This document shows positions 7,806 to 17,266 of a stretch of DNA of 64,000 bases, one piece after another; positions within the stretch are counted from its first letter, which is position 1, and every line of letters starts with the position of its first letter. The notes beneath the pieces were generated by a model. The model was not told where the DNA came from. It searched no databases and worked only from the letters and a program-made list of their open reading frames with translations. The translations under genes were made by a program, and so were the position numbers. Source of the stretch: Patescibacteria group bacterium (GTDB taxonomy: Bacteria; Patescibacteriota; Patescibacteriia; Patescibacteriales; UBA12465); contig JBAZNJ010000001.1 in assembly GCA_041649315.1 (NCBI GenBank), positions 197,869 to 261,868 on the forward strand, in the 5' to 3' direction.

Positions 7806-9869
7806 CTAAAAATTATTATTAGTAATAGTTATTTCCTCGCCTTCAGAAAATTCTTTTTCTAAGGAAGAAACAGGAGCGGCCGAAACCGGAATTGAAGAAG
7901 AAGAAGAAGGCGATTGCGGAGAAGAAAATGAAGGGGCGGAGGCAAAAGCGGCATCCAAACGATCCGCAACGGCTTTTTCCTCATCATTACGATAAGAATC
8001 AGCCGCAACTACTTCAGAGCTTTCGTCCCGAACGGCTTTTAAAGGCGCTGTTTTAATCGGCCGGCCGCGAAAATCAACTGGCGCGGCTTGTTTTAAAGCG
8101 CTCAAAGACAAAGCCGGTCCGTCCGGTATTTTTGGTACGACGCGTTCTAAACGCTTTTTCTCTTCTTCTTTAGCTAAACGCCTTGTTTCAAGCTCAAGCC
8201 GTTTTTCCTCTTTTTTTTTAGACAAACATTCCCGGCAATAAACCGGACGAACGCCATCCGGCTCAAAAACCGTTGTCGTGGACTGGCCGCAACCGGAACA
8301 AATCGCGCTATAACCCGGTTTAGCATAACGATTATCCGACGCGACAGACCGGGGCGCGTTCTGAGACGCAGTAGTTCGAGACGCATTTATATTTTTTTGA
8401 TAAGCTCCGGGCGCCACTGAATCATTGGCGGGCGCCGGCGAAGCCGTTGGGGCGGATTGATTAAAAGCCGGTCGGCTAGGTGAGCCGTTTTGAACAGGGG
8501 CATAAGCCGGGGCGGGAGCCAAAGAAGCGGCGCCGGCCGGCCGGAATGGCTTAGCCCCTTTAGCGCCGGCATTTTGCGCACCAGTTTCCTCAATATAGCT
8601 CTCATGCCAACTCATAATTTTTTCCTCAACCGTTTCCCGATCCGAAGCGTATTTTTCTCGCGAATAACCTATAACTTTTTCTGTGTTGCCAGTTTTTTCT
8701 TCTTCTAATAAAGGCGGCAAGCCTTGAGCGGAAAAGGGCGAAGAAGCAATGCCGTCAATCATTAATTTCATATACATTTCATACTTCGGCAAATTAACAA
8801 TATCTTCTTCGGTAAAAGTCGGGGTTAATTCTTTTACTAATTCTTCAGCATCAGCCGCGCCCACGCGAAAAATAACCATCGTGCCGACATTACCAAAAAC
8901 CGCCGGCTTTACCTTCTCGCTTAATTGCTCAATATATTGATGCGCTAAAATTAAATTCAAACGATATTTACGCGCTTCCGATAAAATATTCGCAAAACTA
9001 TCCGTGGAAAAATTCTGGAATTCATCAATATAAAGATAAAAATCACGGCGTTCCTTTTCCGGCACGTCAACGCGACTCATCGCCGCCAGCTGAATTTTGG
9101 TAATCATCATCGCGCCTAAAAGAGCGGAGTTATCTTCACCAATTCGGCCTTTGGAAAGATTCATGATTAAAATCTTGCCCTTATCCATAATATCGCGGAT
9201 ATCAATTGAGGATCTAACCTGACCGATAACATTCCGCATCAAAGAACTTGATAAAAATTGCCCGACTTTATTTTGGATAGGGGAAACCGCTTCGGCCGCG
9301 AACTTATCGGCATAACCGGAAAATTCTCTTTCCCAAAAGGCCTTAACCACCGGATCTTTGATGTTAGCCACGACCCGCTTCCGGTAATTTTTATCCGATA
9401 ACATCCGGACAACGCCCAAAAGAGTCGAGCCTGGAAAATCCAAGATCGCTAAAATCGCGTTGCGTAAAATATACTCTAAACGCGGCCCCCAGGAATCAGC
9501 CCAAAGTTTTTGAAAAACACCAATCAAACCCGAAGCGACTAGATGGCGCAAATGCGGTTCAACCTGTTCCACAACATTGAAAGCAATCGGGAAATTAATA
9601 TCTGACGGATTAAAATAAACAACGTCCTCAATTCGTTCGCTCGGGATAAATTCAATAATCTTTTCCGCTAAATCGCCATGCGGATCAACAACGGCAACGC
9701 CGTGTCCGGCCCGGATATCATCCACAATCATATTCTCTAAAATTGTTGACTTGCCCATACCGGTTTTTCCAATCAAATACATATGCCGACGACGATCGTC
9801 GGTTTTAATTCCGAATTTTTTAAATTCGTTGCGATAAGTTGTTTGGGCAAAAACCGCGACGTCTTTCAT
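7806..9869 (-). CDS. VirD4/TraD/TraG-like (FtsK-HerA superfamily) ATPase with a C-terminal Ala/Pro-rich linker, zinc ribbon and charged coiled coil
   Basis: Walker A GKTGMGKST, Walker B FYLYIDEFQNF and a LILAHQYIEQL segment typical of coupling-protein C-domains. The C-terminus carries CSGCGQ...VYCRECL (CxxC-x21-CxxC) followed by a KEEKRLELETRRLAKEEEKKRLE coiled coil. Confidence 0.7.
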   Translation of the reverse strand: MKDVAVFAQTTYRNEFKKFGIKTDDRRRHMYLIGKTGMGKSTILENMIVDDIRAGHGVAVVDPHGDLAEKIIEFIPSERIEDVVYFNPSDINFPIAFNVVEQVEPHLRHLVASGLIGVFQKLWADSWGPRLEYILRNAILAILDFPGSTLLGVVRMLSDKNYRKRVVANIKDPVVKAFWEREFSGYADKFAAEAVSPIQNKVGQFLSSSLMRNVIGQVRSSIDIRDIMDKGKILIMNLSKGRIGEDNSALLGAMMITKIQLAAMSRVDVPEKERRDFYLYIDEFQNFSTDSFANILSEARKYRLNLILAHQYIEQLSEKVKPAVFGNVGTMVIFRVGAADAEELVKELTPTFTEEDIVNLPKYEMYMKLMIDGIASSPFSAQGLPPLLEEEKTGNTEKVIGYSREKYASDRETVEEKIMSWHESYIEETGAQNAGAKGAKPFRPAGAASLAPAPAYAPVQNGSPSRPAFNQSAPTASPAPANDSVAPGAYQKNINASRTTASQNAPRSVASDNRYAKPGYSAICSGCGQSTTTVFEPDGVRPVYCRECLSKKKEEKRLELETRRLAKEEEKKRLERVVPKIPDGPALSLSALKQAAPVDFRGRPIKTAPLKAVRDESSEVVAADSYRNDEEKAVADRLDAAFASAPSFSSPQSPSSSSSIPVSAAPVSSLEKEFSEGEEITITNNNF

Positions 9870-10423: not shown

Positions 10424-11152
10424 CTACTCACGCACCGCGCAAAGATCAACATATTTCCGGCCAATAGCCGCAAACTCGGCCATTTCCTTTCGCGTATAAG
10501 ATTTTTTCGTTTGATACGCGCTATTAACTAAGCCCGTATCGGATTTAAAGCTTTGTAAGTACCATTTAGCCGCGCCCTTAATCGCCTGGCCCATTAACGC
10601 GAAATCGGCCGCGCCTAAAAGCCCGGGAACAACGGTTGTCCTAAATTCATAGGGCAATCCGCTCTCCATGATAATTTTAACACTTTTTTGCAAATTATCA
10701 CAATTTATCTTAACCCCGACCACGGATTCATACTTTTCCAAAGGCGCTTTTAAATCCATAGCAATATAATCAATTAAACCCTTTTTAATCAATTCTTTTA
10801 GCATTTTCGGATTAGTCCCATTAGTATCAAGCTTTACTAAATAACCGATTTCCTTTATTTTTTTAATAAAAAACGGCAAGTCGGGATATAAAGTCGGCTC
10901 CCCGCCACTGATAACTACTCCGTCTAAACGGCCGAATCTTTCCTTTAAAAAAAGAAAAAGATTTTCAATGGAAACCGAGGGAAAACCTTTTTCTTTTTTT
11001 ATATTTTTTTCGTCCTTTCCCTCACCGGGCAGGACAAGCAATGGGTTATAACAATAATGACAACGAAAATTACACCCAGCAGTAAAGATTATGGCCGCCA
11101 AATGATCGGGATAGTCGAGAAGGGTTAATTTCTCAAAACCACCAATAATCAT
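10424..11152 (-). CDS. nrdG: anaerobic ribonucleotide reductase activating protein (radical SAM)
   Basis: CNFRCHYC (CxxxCxxC) cluster motif, GGEPTL, 242 aa. It lies downstream of nrdD. Confidence 0.9.
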   Translation of the reverse strand: MIIGGFEKLTLLDYPDHLAAIIFTAGCNFRCHYCYNPLLVLPGEGKDEKNIKKEKGFPSVSIENLFLFLKERFGRLDGVVISGGEPTLYPDLPFFIKKIKEIGYLVKLDTNGTNPKMLKELIKKGLIDYIAMDLKAPLEKYESVVGVKINCDNLQKSVKIIMESGLPYEFRTTVVPGLLGAADFALMGQAIKGAAKWYLQSFKSDTGLVNSAYQTKKSYTRKEMAEFAAIGRKYVDLCAVRE

Positions 11153-11170: not shown

Positions 11171-11308
11171 TTAATCTTTAATCTTAAAAGTTTTACGATC
11201 CTTATATTCAGCCGCTTTCCCCGGATTATAGTTTCTTACCGGAGTTAGCCAGCCGACGACACGGCTGTAAACAGTACATTCAGTACGTTGAGTTTGAATC
11301 GGACTCAT
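11171..11308 (-). CDS. stand-alone glycyl-radical segment of anaerobic RNR (45 aa), split from NrdD
   Basis: Hand translation: MSPIQTQRTECTVYSRVVGWLTPVRNYNPGKAAEYKDRKTFKIKD*. It matches the NrdD C-terminal radical loop pattern (R-x-x-G-aromatic ... N-x-G-K-x-x-E). It is below the 60-aa cutoff of the ORF track. Confidence 0.75.
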   Translation of the reverse strand: MSPIQTQRTECTVYSRVVGWLTPVRNYNPGKAAEYKDRKTFKIKD

Positions 11309-11356
11309 ATAGTTATTATTAATATTATTATAAATTAATAAATTATTATTTTTTAA

Positions 11357-13420
11357 TTATTGAGCTTCCGCGCCGTCTTGTTTTATTCCGGCTTCTACTT
11401 TTTCTTCATAACCGATTTCTTCATCGCATTTCGGGCAATATTTATGCTCACCGGAAATATAACCATGTTTCGGGCAAATTGAGAAAGTCGGGGTAATCGT
11501 AAAGTAAGGCAGATGATAATTATCAACAATCTTTTTCACTAATTTTTTCGCGGTCTCGCCGTCCGACAAACGTTCGCCTAAATAGCCATGTAAAACCGTG
11601 CCGCCGGTATATTTTGTCTGGATATTATCCTGCAGATCAAGGGCGGAAAAAATATCATCGGTAAAATTAACATGTAAATGCGTTGAATTCGTATAATAAG
11701 GGTCCGCGCCCTGGGTCTTAACCGCTTCACTGTTAGCGCAAATTATCCCGGGATAAAGCTGTTGGTCTTTTTTCGCGAAACGATAAGTACAGCCCTCGCC
11801 CGGCGTCGCTTCCAAATTATAAAGATTATTTGTTTCATTCTGAAAATCCATTAATTTTTCCCGCATAAACTCCAGAATTTCAATAGCAAAGGCCTGTCCC
11901 TCCGAAGTCGTTAAATCTTTCCCCATCAAATTTAAAATTGCCTCGTTCATGCCATTGATGCCAATCGTGGAAAAATGATTTTTCCAATAAAAACCAAAAC
12001 GCGCCTTAATATTTTCTAAATAAAACATTGAATAGGGATAAAGACGATCGTCGGTAAATTGTTCTAAAATCTTGCGCTTTATTTCTAAACTATCTTTAGC
12101 TAAATCCATTGTCGCCGCTAAACGCTTTTTAAATTCTTCTTTATCTTTAGAAAGATAGCCGAGGCGCGGTAAATTTATAGTTACGACACCAATTGATCCG
12201 GTTAAAGGATTAGCCCCGAATAAACCGCCGCCGCGCTTGCGCAATTCCCGATTATCAAGCCGTAAACGGCAACACATTGACCGGGCGTCATCGCGATTCA
12301 TATCCGAGTTAACAAAATTAGAAAAATAAGGAATCCCATATTTCGCCGTCATCTCCCAAGCCGGCTTCAAGCTTTCCCGATCCCAATCAAATTCCTTATC
12401 AATATTATAAGTCGGAATCGGAAAACCAAAGACCCGTCCAGTCGAATCGCCAGCCAACATCACTTCGGCAAAGGCCTGATTAAACATATCCATTTCCGGT
12501 TGAAAATCCTTGTATTTTTCCGGCATAATCTCGCCTCCGATAATCGCGTTCTCTTCGCCAATCATCGGCGACGGCGTAACATCCAAAGTAATATTAGTAA
12601 ACGGAGTCTGGAAACCGACTCGGGTCGGGACATTGATATTAAACATGAATTCCTGTAAACCCTGTTTTACTTCTTTATAAGTTAAATGATCATAACGAAT
12701 AAACGGCGCTAAATAAGTATCAAAATTCGCAAAGGCCTGTGCGCCGGCTGATTCGCCCTGGAGCGTATAGAAGAAATTAATGATCTGGCCGAGAGCGCTG
12801 CGGAAATGTTTAGGCGGGCCGCTCTGGACTTTTTCGCTCACCCCGCGGAAACCGCGAATCAAAAGATCCTTAAGATCCCAACCGCAACAATAAGTCGCTA
12901 ATAAACCAAGGTCATGGATATGAAAATCACCGTTAACATGGGCCTCCCTGATATTCTCCGGGTACATCTTATTAAGCCAATACCGGGCAGAAATCGCTGA
13001 AGCTACATAATTATTTAGTCCTTGGACCGAAAAACTCATATTACTATTTTCTTTCAAGCGCCAATCCGCCCGGCCTAAATAATCTTCCATTAATTTATCA
13101 TCAACGGTCGCGGAATTAATATCCCGCAATTGACGATGCTGTTCCCGATACAGGATATAATTCTTAGCGATACTAATCAGTTTATTCTCAATCAAAACCT
13201 CTTCCACAATGTCCTGAACTTCTTCCACGGCCGGGATGCTGTTTTTATGGAATTTCTTATTAAGCTTTAAAGAGACCTGATCGGCAATCTTTTTCGCTAA
13301 ATGGCGATCATCGATCTTTACGGCTAAAGCGGCTTTATAAATAGCTTTAACGATCTTATCCAGATCAAAATCAACGATTTCTCCGGACCTTTTAATGATT
13401 TTGCTGATAGTTTCTGACAT
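11357..13420 (-). CDS. nrdD: anaerobic ribonucleoside-triphosphate reductase, large part (ATP-cone plus catalytic barrel plus Zn site, lacking the glycyl-radical loop)
   Basis: N-terminal ATP-cone, MCCRLRLD finger-loop cysteines and a C-terminal Zn site CPKH...CPKC. The ORF stops 22 aa after the Zn site without an RxxG(Y/W) motif. Confidence 0.95.
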   Translation of the reverse strand: MSETISKIIKRSGEIVDFDLDKIVKAIYKAALAVKIDDRHLAKKIADQVSLKLNKKFHKNSIPAVEEVQDIVEEVLIENKLISIAKNYILYREQHRQLRDINSATVDDKLMEDYLGRADWRLKENSNMSFSVQGLNNYVASAISARYWLNKMYPENIREAHVNGDFHIHDLGLLATYCCGWDLKDLLIRGFRGVSEKVQSGPPKHFRSALGQIINFFYTLQGESAGAQAFANFDTYLAPFIRYDHLTYKEVKQGLQEFMFNINVPTRVGFQTPFTNITLDVTPSPMIGEENAIIGGEIMPEKYKDFQPEMDMFNQAFAEVMLAGDSTGRVFGFPIPTYNIDKEFDWDRESLKPAWEMTAKYGIPYFSNFVNSDMNRDDARSMCCRLRLDNRELRKRGGGLFGANPLTGSIGVVTINLPRLGYLSKDKEEFKKRLAATMDLAKDSLEIKRKILEQFTDDRLYPYSMFYLENIKARFGFYWKNHFSTIGINGMNEAILNLMGKDLTTSEGQAFAIEILEFMREKLMDFQNETNNLYNLEATPGEGCTYRFAKKDQQLYPGIICANSEAVKTQGADPYYTNSTHLHVNFTDDIFSALDLQDNIQTKYTGGTVLHGYLGERLSDGETAKKLVKKIVDNYHLPYFTITPTFSICPKHGYISGEHKYCPKCDEEIGYEEKVEAGIKQDGAEAQ

Positions 13421-13431
13421 AGGGAAGATAA

Positions 13432-13890
13432 TTATTTTTTTTCTTTAATTAATTTATTAAGCTCTTTGCGAAATTCATGCGCATCTTTAAAAGATTCATA
13501 AACCGAGGCATAACGGATATAGGCAATCGGATCAATTTTCTTTAAATTCTTCATTGCAGCCATTCCAACCTGCTTTGAGGTTATTTCGGTCTTCTTTAAA
13601 CGCTGTAAATCCCGCTCAATTGAGTTCACGAGCTTTTTAAAACGATCCTCGGTAATCGGCCGCTTCTCGCAGGACTTCTTTAAACCGCTAACCAGCTTTT
13701 CCCGGCTATAAGATTCTCGCCGGCCGTCCCGTTTAACAATAATCAAGTCCAATAACTCTATTTCTTCATAAGTCGAGAAACGAAAACCGCATTTTAAGCA
13801 TTCGCGGCGGCGGCGGATAGACAAGCCGTCCGGAGCAACCCGAGAATCAACTACTTTTGTGTCTAAAAAATAACAAATTGGACATTTCAT
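13432..13890 (-). CDS. nrdR: transcriptional repressor NrdR
   Basis: MKCPICYFLDTKVVDSR zinc ribbon plus ATP-cone. 152 aa. Confidence 0.95.
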   Translation of the reverse strand: MKCPICYFLDTKVVDSRVAPDGLSIRRRRECLKCGFRFSTYEEIELLDLIIVKRDGRRESYSREKLVSGLKKSCEKRPITEDRFKKLVNSIERDLQRLKKTEITSKQVGMAAMKNLKKIDPIAYIRYASVYESFKDAHEFRKELNKLIKEKK

Positions 13891-13912: not shown

Positions 13913-13960
13913 TTACCATATTTAGGGCTCTCTTAGTAAATAGACCACTAAATATTGTGT
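13913..13960 (-). promoter_or_regulatory. tandem NrdR-box candidates upstream of nrdR-nrdD-nrdG
   Basis: CCACTAAATATTGTGT (13945-13960) matches the 16-bp NrdR palindrome acaCwAtATaTwGtgt at 14/16. TTACCATATTTAGGGC (13913-13928) matches at 10/16. The centre-to-centre distance is 32 bp, the usual tandem spacing. Confidence 0.6.
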
Positions 13961-14223
13961 CTATTAGTATTTTAGCAAATTTTTACCTATGGGTCAATTT
14001 AGCTAACTTTCAAAAAAATAATTAAAAATTCTAAAGTTATCCACAGAAATTTAAAAAAACTTTAAACATGAAAATATCGATCAAAAAAATATCGGCAAAG
14101 ATTAAACTTAAAATAAATAGATTAATAAAGGCCGAATAATTAAAACAAAGAAATGAAAGGCTAAAAAGGGTAAAAGAAAAAGCCCTTTAAATAAGGACTT
14201 TTTATACTTTCTAAAAGTGTGGC

Positions 14224-14785: not shown

Positions 14786-15994
14786 TTACCCCATTTTCTT
14801 CCGAATAAAAGCCGGAACGCTTAAATCATCATCTTCTTCTTTTTCGTCTAGCTTAACCGCCTTCTTCTCTAAGGCCGGTTTCATTGGGATACTCTTAAAA
14901 ACGGAAAATTTGCTTTTTGGCTTTTCTTCTGTTGATTCCGTTTCCTTTTCCTTTTCTTTAAACCCGCCAAAGCTTTTTTCTTTCTCAATAAAGGCATTCG
15001 GAGTATAGGCCTTAGACGATTCGCTTTTTCTTGAATTCTCATGGCCGTCAAAACCGGTCGCGACGACCGTAATCTTGATTTCGTCCTTCATATTTTCATC
15101 AATTACCGCCCCGAAAATAATCTTCGCTTCCTCGTCCGCGGCCGAAGTTATAACTTTAGCCGCCTCGCTCACCTCAGTCATGCTTAAATCCGGCCCGCCG
15201 GTAACCGTAAAGACAATACCGCGGGCACCGTCAATTGACATATCAAGTAAACTTGAATTTATCGCCGCTTTTGCCGCCTCAACCGCCCTATTTTCGCCGC
15301 TCGCTTGACCAATACCCATTAAAGCCGAGCCAGCGTTAGACATCACCGCTTTAACATCGGCAAAGTCGGCGTTAATGATTCCGGGAACAGTAATAATTTC
15401 CGCGATCCCCTGAACGCCCTGACGCAAAACATCATCGGCAATCTGAAAGGCCTCTAAGAGCGGAGTTTTTTTATCAATAACCTGGAGTAATTTATCATTA
15501 GAAATAGTAATAATCGTGTCAACTTTGTCGGCTAATTCCGTAAAAGCCCGATCAGCGATATTTTTTCGTTGGCCGCCTTCAAAAACAAAGGGTCGGGTAA
15601 CTACCGCGACCGTCAAAGCGCCAAGTTCTTTCGCAATCTGGGCGACAATCGGCGAAGCGCCCGAGCCAGTACCGCCGCCTAAGCCACAGGTTACAAAAAC
15701 CATATCGCAACCTTTTAAGGCCTCCCTAATCTCATTCTGGGACTCCTCGGCCGCGTTCTTACCTAATTCCGGATTCATGCCCGCACCTAAACCGCGCGTT
15801 ACGGTTTTCCCGATATGGATCTTCTCATTCGCTTTATTAAAATGAAGCGCCTGGACATCAGTATTAACCGCCACAAAACTAACACCTTTGATACCCCCAG
15901 CAATCATTCGATTAATCGCGCTCCCGCCGCCGCCACCGACGCCGGTGACTTTAATTTTAGCAAAAGTTTCAATGTCAGGTTTTATTTCCGCCAT
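14786..15994 (-). CDS. ftsZ: cell division GTPase FtsZ
   Basis: [13 protein letters not shown], tubulin signature GGGTGSGA and a C-terminal acidic linker ending in [12 protein letters not shown]. Confidence 0.97.
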
Positions 15995-16006
15995 AAAATT
16001 ATATTA

Positions 16007-17266
16007 TTATCTCGGCATTATCTTATTCCATAATCCTTTAATCTTTTCGGATAAACCAGAGAATTTCCTAAATTTATCCCCTAAGCCGCCGCTATCCGCT
16101 TCTAAATTATTCCCCCATAAAACCAACCCCAAAGCCGTTAAAAATTCCGGATTTTTTACTTTATCGATTACTAAATTTATATTTTTAGCTGCGCCGAGCG
16201 CCGCTGGCAACCGTAATTTCTTTTTCGCCACTTCTACCAAACCATCTAATTCCGCACCGCCACCGACAAAAATTACGCCAGCGGGGAGTAGGCCGGACCG
16301 ATCAATCCGTTTAAATTCTCCATCAACTTTATCAAAAATCTCTTCAACTCGAGCATTGATTATTTCCGCTAAATATTTACGAGAAATCGCGCTAATATCG
16401 TCATTAACCTCTTCTTCCTTGACTAATTGGCTCACATCAATCTCTTCTTTTTTGTCAACATCTTCCGCGGCCGCCGTGCCGTATTCGGCCTTAATCCGTT
16501 CCGCTAAATTAATCGGACAACGTAAACCAATCGCGATATCGGAAGTAATATGTTCGGCGCCAATCGGTAAAACCGCGGTATGGATAAGGTTTCTTTCCTC
16601 ATAAACCGCTAAGGAGGTCGTTGACGATCCTAAATTTATCAAAGCCACGCCTAACTCTTTTTGTTTTGAGCTTAAAACCGCTTCGGCCGCGGCAATCGGC
16701 GCGATTACCAAATCTTCAATTTCTAGGCCCGTGCGGTAAATTGCCTTAGTTAAATTCTTGATCTGAGTGCTTAAACCCTGGACAATCAAGGTTTCTACTT
16801 CTAAACGGATACCGTTCATGCCGATCGGATCTTTAATATCGCCCTGGTTATCAACGCTAAATTTTATAGGAATAACATGGAGAATCTCATAATTAACCGG
16901 CACCGCTAAAGCCCGAGCCGCTTCAATCGCCCGATTTATATCATTTTCGCTTATTTCTCCATCACTCCGGCCGACTGCTACTACTCCCTTAGAATGATCA
17001 CATTTAATATGGGGGTCATTAATACTGACCCAAACGCGACTAATCGGCACGCCAACTAAACGTTCGGCTTTTTCTAAAACTGCGGAAATAGATGAAGTCG
17101 TCTCTTCAATACTGTTGACCACGCCACGGCTAACGCCAATAGTCGGCCCGGAAACCGCCCCGATTATCTGTAATTCATTTCCGGCCGGTCCGGCAATTCT
17201 TTGCCCGACAACCAGGCGAATCGAGGTTGAGCCGATATCCAAACCGGCAATAATATTGTCTTTCAT
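16007..17266 (-). CDS. ftsA: cell division protein FtsA
   Basis: Actin-like ATPase. AGLDIGSTSIRLVV phosphate-1 motif, 419 aa, 12 nt upstream of ftsZ. Confidence 0.95.
   Translation of the reverse strand: MKDNIIAGLDIGSTSIRLVVGQRIAGPAGNELQIIGAVSGPTIGVSRGVVNSIEETTSSISAVLEKAERLVGVPISRVWVSINDPHIKCDHSKGVVAVGRSDGEISENDINRAIEAARALAVPVNYEILHVIPIKFSVDNQGDIKDPIGMNGIRLEVETLIVQGLSTQIKNLTKAIYRTGLEIEDLVIAPIAAAEAVLSSKQKELGVALINLGSSTTSLAVYEERNLIHTAVLPIGAEHITSDIAIGLRCPINLAERIKAEYGTAAAEDVDKKEEIDVSQLVKEEEVNDDISAISRKYLAEIINARVEEIFDKVDGEFKRIDRSGLLPAGVIFVGGGAELDGLVEVAKKKLRLPAALGAAKNINLVIDKVKNPEFLTALGLVLWGNNLEADSGGLGDKFRKFSGLSEKIKGLWNKIMPR

Follow-up and report, generated by a model that had tools for sequence, protein, structure and literature searches.

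To our knowledge, every characterised class III (anaerobic) ribonucleotide reductase (RNR) carries its radical glycine on the catalytic polypeptide. The nrd locus of a Patescibacteria group bacterium (GenBank assembly GCA_041649315.1, contig JBAZNJ010000001.1) raises the question of whether this glycine can be encoded by a gene of its own. The locus was analyzed within a 64-kb stretch of the contig (positions 197,869 to 261,868), hereafter called the window, and all coordinates are counted from its first letter. On the minus strand of the window, the gene order is nrdR, an nrdD gene encoding a large chain of 687 amino acids (aa), a 48-nt spacer, an open reading frame (ORF) of 45 aa, and nrdG, and the glycyl-radical motif YSRVVGW sits on the 45-aa ORF and not on the large one. 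We consider it likely, with a probability of about 0.8, that the locus encodes an obligatory two-chain class III RNR, in which the 45-aa peptide is the radical carrier. The initial annotation of this DNA had hesitated between a genuinely two-piece NrdD and the scar of an excised insertion. The two-piece reading is now strongly supported on genetic grounds, that is, by the conserved split, the invariant ATG, the varied spacers and frames, selection on the small ORF, and promoter-like elements. The split is also more general than was then supposed, being widespread and under selection.

The divided nrdD gene

The NRDD domain of Pfam (PF13597, 562 positions) is divided cleanly between the two ORFs. 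Positions 1-529 fall on the large ORF (11357..13420, minus strand, as are all genes of the locus; E-value 2.7e-184) and positions 531-562 on the small one (11171..11308; 2.8e-07), which identifies the latter as the missing glycyl-radical segment, as the initial annotation had read it. The large chain scores above the curated cut-offs of three families: PF13597 (614 bits, cut-off 26), NF006126 (1032.7 bits over positions 3-653 of 684, cut-off 548), and TIGR02487 (526.6 bits, cut-off 326). It begins with an ATP-cone at residues 7-96 (13133..13402; PF03477, 4.2e-20). The finger-loop motif MCCRLRLD, read from the sequence at residues 382-389 (12254..12277), is invariant among 75 large-chain homologues and, by analogy with known class III RNRs, is presumed to carry the thiyl-radical cysteine or cysteines. 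The C-terminal ribbon with its four Cys/His ligands (C649-P-K-H652 and C662-P-K-C665, spaced as C649-x2-H652-x9-C662-x2-C665; 11426..11476) is a predicted zinc site, kept in all 120 closest homologues, and aligns with CEDGH...CPVC of the Thermotoga maritima NrdD (4COI). Thus the ATP-cone, the MCCRLRLD motif, and the CPKH...CPKC site ascribed to this ORF at the outset are all in place.

Past the ribbon, the large chain continues into a tail, DEEIGYEEKVEAGIKQDGAEAQ (11360..11425), that is poorly conserved, as judged by its length among homologues and by the alignment of the junction. It ends with ...GIKQDGAEAQ and a TAA codon 22 residues after CPKC, and the radical motif is absent. The spacer (11309..11356) is 98% A+T and is followed by an ATG at 11308, which opens the small ORF; this ORF ends at 11171 and reads MSPIQTQRTECTVYSRVVGWLTPVRNYNPGKAAEYKDRKTFKIKD. 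Its radical-site glycine, G19, is encoded at 11254..11252, and a conserved cysteine, C11, at 11278..11276. The nrdG gene (10424..11152; 242 aa) starts 18 nt downstream of the small ORF and encodes a radical S-adenosylmethionine (SAM) activase matching PF04055 and TIGR02495 (NrdG2; 4.4e-62, 208.8 bits with a cut-off of 131). These positions agree with the original description of the locus on every point.

Since the large and the small ORFs share a reading frame, with one TAA and 16 sense codons between them, the trivial alternative to a real split is a nonsense change or stop read-through and not a frameshift, which we therefore reject as the cause. The initial annotation was right to doubt a one-nucleotide frameshift, but its argument missed the in-frame relation. 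No second nrdD was found in the window. The exact 45-aa peptide is present on three independent public contigs, where it is automatically named "anaerobic ribonucleoside-triphosphate reductase", its cluster mates being so named or called "hypothetical protein"; for the exact 687-aa sequence, no public record was found.

PF13597 is the sole Pfam match of the small ORF, no match to Gly_radical being obtained at E<=0.01, and neither NCBIfam (June 2026) nor PHROGs contains a dedicated model for the small protein. A search of the PDB with the peptide alone gave no match, and a query in which the peptide was tethered to the C-terminus of the large chain placed it on residues 614-642 of T. maritima 4COI.

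A segment within the barrel (12403-12441, residues 327-339, TGRVFGFPIPTYN) resembles the radical loop (SRVVGWLTPVRNYN), and MAFFT drew stand-alone peptides onto the internal GRVFGFPIP stretch of the large chain. This likeness is probably a coincidence, yet a trap for automated alignment.

Conservation of the split and position of the break

A word-indexed search with the small ORF retrieved 58 homologues, 67-91% identical to it, all of which are stand-alone proteins of 44-69 aa. Eleven positions (R8, Y14, R16, V17, V18, G19, W20, P23, N28, G30, and R38) are invariant among them, and C11 is nearly so. The 120 large chains nearest to that of the window share at least 85% identity with it, come from sources named Patescibacteria, Falkowbacteria, or Saccharimonadales, and are 671-703 aa long, or about 1,000 aa where they contain an intein. 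None of the 120 has the glycine motif, and all of them keep the Cys-His-Cys-Cys ribbon and then end 9-29 poorly conserved residues later.

A species-level scan, with one genome per species, found the peptide encoded in 143 genomes, mostly of Patescibacteria. Of the loci retrieved, 78 include enough upstream sequence, and in every one of them a stop codon (TAA, TAG, or TGA) terminates the large ORF, followed by a spacer of 18-184 nt and by the ATG of the small ORF, which occupies a constant position in the alignment; as in the window, the barrel polypeptide of these loci lacks the radical glycine. nrdG was found at all 78 loci and nrdR at all but seven, and none of the loci is fused. The comparison with homologues that the initial annotation had proposed thus shows the split to be conserved in all 78 informative species-level genomes. 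The arrangement is found in all of the related genomes that were examined, which is far more than chance would produce.

Strong purifying selection acts on the small ORF. Among 82 cellular copies (3,321 pairs), the ratio of non-synonymous to synonymous differences (pN/pS) is 0.079, and variability at the first, second, and third codon positions is 0.06, 0.03, and 0.39, respectively. For the copies found in viral contigs (n=17; see below), pN/pS is 0.30.

The family extends well beyond these relatives. A profile search over 1.84 billion cluster representatives yielded 3,906 proteins at E<=1e-3; at the stricter threshold of E<=1e-10 there were 251 cluster representatives, the best 150 of which are all 47-115 aa long. 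We considered whether such short proteins could be fragments from contig edges and rejected this explanation: 145 of the 150 start with Met, about 10-30 residues precede the motif, and the flanking genes are complete. Most matches from this search carry YSRVVGY, YSRIVGY, or YSRVVGF, as opposed to the GW form of Patescibacteria. A second search, with peptides of the GY and GF types, gave 7,975 clusters at E<=1e-5, the top 120 of which are all 44-75 aa long. The GY-type split occurs in other genomic backgrounds, with a 674-aa large chain, a small chain of 44-56 aa, and then nrdG, the spacers being 0-27 nt. At five loci of one GY-type lineage, the operon is followed by genes encoding a TM1506-family protein and a thioredoxin-reductase-like flavoprotein; this hints at a reductant system co-encoded with the enzyme in this lineage.

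Comparison with single-chain enzymes locates the break. In T. maritima NrdD (4COI), the ribbon (...CEDGH...CPVCG) is followed by four residues and then by DEYMRIVGYLVPV. Fused phage relatives, 47-63% identical to the large chain of the window by tblastn, read CP-x-H...CPKC(N/G)-x-x-C-EVYSRVVGY, with just three residues between the ribbon and the conserved cysteine ahead of the loop. The split forms have instead an extension of the large chain, CPKCD-E-(I/L)-G-(Y/F) plus a variable tail, that is absent from the fused relatives, the DEEIGY part of the tail in the window being common to all split forms. The small chain has about eight residues ahead of R-x-x-C-x-VYSRVVG, so that the conserved cysteine (C11) is located on the peptide. 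To judge from these alignments, the break lies in an expanded linker: the zinc ribbon is retained on the barrel chain, and the peptide consists of the radical loop and the packing segment C-terminal to it.

How many times the gene was divided is less clear. A quick neighbour-joining tree of the barrel region did not separate the split from the fused forms (35 of 300 bootstraps), and one of the split groups is equally close to the fused phage enzymes and to the Patescibacteria group, although the linker extension is nonetheless present in all split groups. Either one origin with re-fusions or several origins are possible.

Several variations on this design were seen. Longer stand-alone proteins, of about 90-156 aa, make up a sub-class that includes P0225, P0279, P0315, a protein of the archaeal virus ANMV-1, and viral ORFs of 133-156 aa at six loci. 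The first four of these have their own CxxC...CxxC ribbon ahead of the loop, the cut lying before the ribbon and not after it. Inteins, some with LAGLIDADG domains, interrupt the barrel in several split and fused relatives (for example, at L109:1553-4996); these are proteins of 993-1,147 aa with matches to PF14890 or LAGLIDADG. In many Patescibacteria, the peptide has a Cys-rich end, such as ...CSE, ...DCNC, ...SCC, ...QFC, or GGGCGSCGCDK (loci L001, L020, L066, L088, L093, L102, and L106), and at L020, L093, and L102 the large chain has a Cys-rich tail as well (...ACEEC, ...SSCCEA); the copy in the window has no Cys tail. Such tails could serve as a redox shuttle or as an interchain metal clamp.

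Putative regulatory signals and viral copies

The first gene of the operon, nrdR (13432..13890), encodes the 152-aa transcriptional repressor of nrd genes (TIGR00244, 1.6e-54; Pfam Zn_ribbon_NrdR and ATP-cone). It is preceded by a promoter-like site, TTGACC-17-TAAAAT with an upstream TG (13969..13997, minus strand), which was found in a consensus scan with 10 of 12 positions matching and is a consensus match alone. Between this site and the nrdR start codon, there is a palindrome resembling the NrdR box, ACACAATATTTAGTGG on the minus strand (13945..13960). It is the sole match to ACACWATATATWGTGT, the NrdR-box consensus reportedly described by Rodionov and Gelfand in 2005, with at most three mismatches in the window, 0.43 matches being expected by chance. 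About 30 bp downstream of it is a second palindrome-like element, a weaker one (approximately 13915-13930). The internal spacer contains no palindrome of this kind.

The spacer between the large and the small ORFs contains a promoter-like element of its own, TTAAAA-18-TATAAT (11356..11327, minus strand), in which the -10 box ends 18 nt before the ATG. Elements of this type are frequent among the relatives: TTGnnn-17-TATAAT or TAAAAT is present in 58 of 81 spacers, the gap being 18 nt in one locus, and in these 58 the distance from the end of the -10 box to the ATG is either 9-21 nt or 44-79 nt. Judging from these motifs, the spacers suggest that the peptide and nrdG may be transcribed separately from the large chain. 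The 37 loci with a long leader, those in which this distance is 44-79 nt (for example, L039:3945-4000, L047:3943-4000, and L083:3932-4000), have one hairpin of 10-15 bp directly after the -10 box and then an A-rich stretch. The position of the hairpin is kept while its sequence varies by lineage, and the short spacer of the window has no hairpin. A comparison of the spacers and leaders with Rfam matched no known RNA family.

Farther from the operon, the window and locus L001 share ftsA and ftsZ upstream and a 687-aa ATPase of the TrwB/DUF87 type with a C-terminal zinc finger downstream (14786-17266 and 7806-9869 in the window). By homology with L001, the operon appears to be part of a syntenic core region in such small genomes.

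The peptide gene also occurs without its operon. Among 22 contigs of the IMG/VR database that encode a peptide of the GW type, 21 have no nrdD, nrdG, or nrdR within 6 kb, and the ORFs are intact and 42-54 aa long. For the GY and GF types, 65 of 79 IMG/VR loci are orphans, with no nrdD or nrdG within 6 kb; the remaining loci include ten ordinary fused phage NrdDs and one split pair. Altogether, the viral orphan genes span 41-156 aa. Viral markers on annotated contigs include an SU10-type capsid on one contig and collagen-like tail fibres on two others. The suggestion of the initial annotation to search other candidate phyla radiation and phage nrdD loci has thus been borne out twice, by the same split elsewhere and by orphan viral peptides, and the latter reinforce the apt analogy it had drawn with GrcA/YfiD.

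One orphan is found in the archaeal virus ANMV-1 (KP703175.1, 38.5 kb), which encodes a terminase, a prohead protease, and a tail fibre. Its 144-aa coding sequence annotated as an anaerobic reductase (L194:25525-25959) consists of a CxxC...CxxC ribbon and the radical loop, and no large NrdD was found in the 38.5-kb record. A hidden large subunit was considered and rejected, as the 1,166-aa hypothetical protein and the neighbours have no NRDD domain. Methanobacterium virus PhiF1, in turn, encodes a normal fused enzyme. Another orphan is situated next to a Cdc6-like gene and surrounded by small unknown ORFs. This family of virus-borne orphan peptides is apparently undescribed.

A probable two-chain reductase: alternatives, proposed mechanism, and significance

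Could the two ORFs be a single gene after all? In the window they are in frame and separated by a single TAA, so one base change would join them, as expected if the split were an assembly or sequencing error, a recent nonsense mutation, or a decaying pseudogene of one continuous nrdD. The probability of this is practically negligible, given that 78 independent species-level assemblies share the split with differing stops, spacer lengths, and frames, that no fused form exists among the 120 close homologues, that the small ORF is maintained by selection, that the identical peptide occurs on three independent contigs, and that the window holds no second nrdD. Post-translational rejoining of the chains, by trans-splicing or ligation, into a single-chain enzyme is hardly more credible. 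The family does include large chains with inteins (about 1,000-1,150 aa; PF14890 or LAGLIDADG), but the large chain ends in a short, variable stretch (9-29 aa) devoid of intein blocks, the small chain has only about eight residues ahead of the conserved R-x-x-C, no Pfam intein match is seen on either side, and the orphan viral peptides have no partner half. Programmed stop read-through or recoding would yield the canonical chain and make the two ORFs a device of translational control. We examined it in 80 loci (the 78 above, L001, and the window): the ORFs are in the same frame in 41, above the one third expected by chance, a comparison uncorrected for relatedness, and in eight of the 80, the window and seven others, there is no further in-frame stop. 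Yet in the other 72 a frame difference or one to seven extra in-frame stops make read-through unable to join the ORFs, the ATG of the small ORF always lies at one alignment position, most spacers are promoter-like and not coding-like, and the viral orphans exist as ORFs of their own. Recoding is therefore very improbable, if slightly less so than rejoining. A recurrent split with varied frame, stop, and spacer, combined with selection, excludes assembly error, pseudogene, and recoding as a general explanation.

The remaining alternatives concern the function and the origin of the small protein. It could be a regulator, decoy, or inhibitor, for instance one titrating NrdG, and not a radical carrier, with viral copies shutting down or hijacking the deoxynucleotide synthesis of the host. 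A viral activase decoy is conceivable, and the viral copies evolve faster (pN/pS 0.30 as compared to 0.08). Against this, none of the 120 large chains has a glycine loop of its own, so that no radical would be possible without the peptide; the peptide, viral copies included, keeps every residue conserved in the radical loop of fused relatives; and the order of large chain, small chain, and nrdG is fixed. We consider such a role unlikely, albeit less so than the single-gene alternatives. A further proposal bears on the origin only: the split may be the scar of a lost mobile element, a homing endonuclease or an intein, in the linker between ribbon and loop, the two-gene state having been retained. 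The expanded linker of the split forms (CPKCD-E-I/L-G-Y/F plus tail and about eight peptide residues, versus three residues in fused relatives) and the frequency of inteins and LAGLIDADG domains in the family speak for it, whereas no ORF is found between the genes at any locus, the longest spacer being 184 nt. We hold this origin to be a tentative possibility, with the odds against it; it is compatible with the two-chain reading of the present function. The scar suggested by the initial annotation thus survives as a possible evolutionary origin, but not as a description of the present state, which is a maintained two-gene arrangement with no endonuclease or intein between the ORFs.

The obligatory two-chain RNR remains the best explanation. 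What has been shown in its favour is how the genes are arranged and how well this order is conserved, the selection acting on the small ORF, the promoter-like motif, and the presence of orphan copies in viral contigs. A number of points weigh against it. That the peptide is translated, armed by NrdG, docked, and exchanged, and that viruses make use of it, are steps that we infer. The promoter-like element in the spacer of the window is weak, and the small ORF has no upstream Shine-Dalgarno sequence; with the ORFs in frame and a single stop between them, some read-through product is possible in this genome. A glycyl radical on a free unstructured peptide is expected to be unstable, and activation may need the large chain. 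Structure predictions were of low confidence: the tethered chain, modelled from a single sequence, had a mean predicted local distance difference test (pLDDT) score of 36, and a prediction with 75 close large-chain homologues, at least 84% identical, reached 53.5, with the C-terminal 110 residues below 50. The viral orphans were mostly inspected over 6 kb on each side, so that a large nrdD could sit elsewhere, and viral marker genes were checked on just a few IMG/VR contigs.

We propose the following mechanism for the two-chain enzyme. The 687-aa chain would supply the ATP-cone, the ten-stranded barrel with the Cys-Cys finger loop, and the zinc ribbon, and the 45-aa chain would contribute the G19 loop, the site of the stable radical, together with about 25 residues normally packed behind it. 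In glycyl-radical enzymes (GREs), the loop glycine loses its C-alpha hydrogen to the activase once the loop leaves the barrel. Here, NrdG would abstract this hydrogen from G19 while the peptide is free or loosely bound to the large chain. The peptide loop would then occupy the barrel beside C383/C384 of the finger loop, as the covalent C-terminal domain does in single-chain NrdD, and transfer of the radical from Gly to Cys would start nucleotide reduction. A non-covalent radical piece might be exchangeable, a fresh copy re-arming the 79-kDa chain; as glycyl-radical proteins are cleaved by oxygen at the glycine, the loss would be limited to a 5-kDa peptide. The internal promoter predicted in many relatives would uncouple production of the peptide and the activase from that of the large chain, and viruses encoding only the peptide could provide the enzyme of the infected host with additional cartridges. 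That the peptide is a free-standing, exchangeable glycyl-radical cofactor for class III RNR, armed by NrdG and exploited by bacteriophages and archaeal viruses, is a broader proposal, toward which we lean only slightly.

The locus resembles the single-chain NrdD/NrdG systems of phage T4, Escherichia coli, T. maritima (4COI/4U3E), and Prevotella copri (8P23) in the ATP-cone, the barrel, the finger-loop cysteines, and the zinc ribbon, as well as in the R-V-x-G-aromatic loop, the adjacent radical-SAM activase, and NrdR control. It differs from them by the stop codon, the spacer (18-184 nt, or 0-27 nt in other lineages), the new ATG, and the expanded linker between ribbon and loop. Other GREs also need small extra polypeptides, such as benzylsuccinate synthase, with its alpha, beta, and gamma subunits, and 4-hydroxyphenylacetate decarboxylase; their small subunits have Fe-S or structural roles, and the glycine is on the large subunit. 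RNR catalytic subunits made from two adjacent genes, whose products must assemble, have precedents too. Phage Aeh1 is said to have nrdA-a/nrdA-b genes in pieces with a homing endonuclease gene in the gap, as Friedrich and co-workers reportedly described in 2007. The class II enzyme of Pseudomonas aeruginosa is encoded by nrdJa and nrdJb, its catalytic subunit being split into two adjacent genes (PMC9669993). These precedents cut the barrel or split off a C-terminal redox or zinc domain, and neither detaches the radical element; besides, no mobile-element ORF of the Aeh1 kind was found between the halves in about 85 loci with spacers of 0-184 nt.

The closest parallel is the "spare part" of pyruvate formate-lyase (PFL). 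The PFL activase (PFL-AE) accepts short peptides and the 14-kDa YfiD, and YfiD/GrcA and Y06I of phage T4, once activated by it, complement oxygen-cleaved PFL (PMC8683613, PMC13450708). GrcA/YfiD of E. coli and Y06I are likewise small stand-alone proteins with a glycyl-radical loop. The 45-aa peptide, too, is presumably activated by the cognate activase and would complement a large chain that has no working loop, and like Y06I it has virus-encoded copies. YfiD is, however, a back-up for intact PFL after oxygen cleavage, whereas in the cellular operons described here the large chain never has the loop, and the peptide would be primary and obligatory, as the gene content indicates. The peptide is also shorter (45 aa versus 127 aa in YfiD) and corresponds to the C-terminus of NRDD (PF13597) and not to the Gly_radical domain of the PFL type. 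According to a 2026 review of GREs, formate lyases alone among the classes have identified spare parts, and the existence of spare parts outside PFL is an open question. In the full-text literature, including two comprehensive RNR phylogenies and the June 2026 GRE review, we found neither a split class III RNR nor a spare part of the NrdD type described, subscription-only literature being outside the scope of this search.

If the broader reading, that of an exchangeable cofactor, is true, this would be the first GRE with the radical glycine natively on its own polypeptide, and the spare-part principle would extend beyond PFL. The split contradicts the defining architecture of the family, in which the catalytic chain bears the glycine at its C-terminus, and it changes the picture of activation, as a small free peptide could serve as the substrate of the activase, which would not have to pry a domain from a 160-kDa dimer. 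Two papers from the Drennan laboratory and the 2026 review ask about spare parts outside PFL, and the split NrdD offers a direct test case; a 45-residue peptide can moreover be synthesised and labelled as a substrate for radical installation and Gly-to-Cys transfer. The orphan copies point to a family of candidate viral auxiliary genes that is large and lacks annotation; GenBank lists its members as "hypothetical protein" or names them automatically as the full enzyme. Annotation pipelines that require a full-length NrdD may, in turn, score such organisms as having no functional anaerobic reductase. For the bacteria themselves, whose genomes are small and which are often found at oxic-anoxic boundaries, a carrier that detaches would allow the radical supply to be tuned separately from the large chain and would provide a cheap repair route for an oxygen-sensitive and probably essential enzyme.

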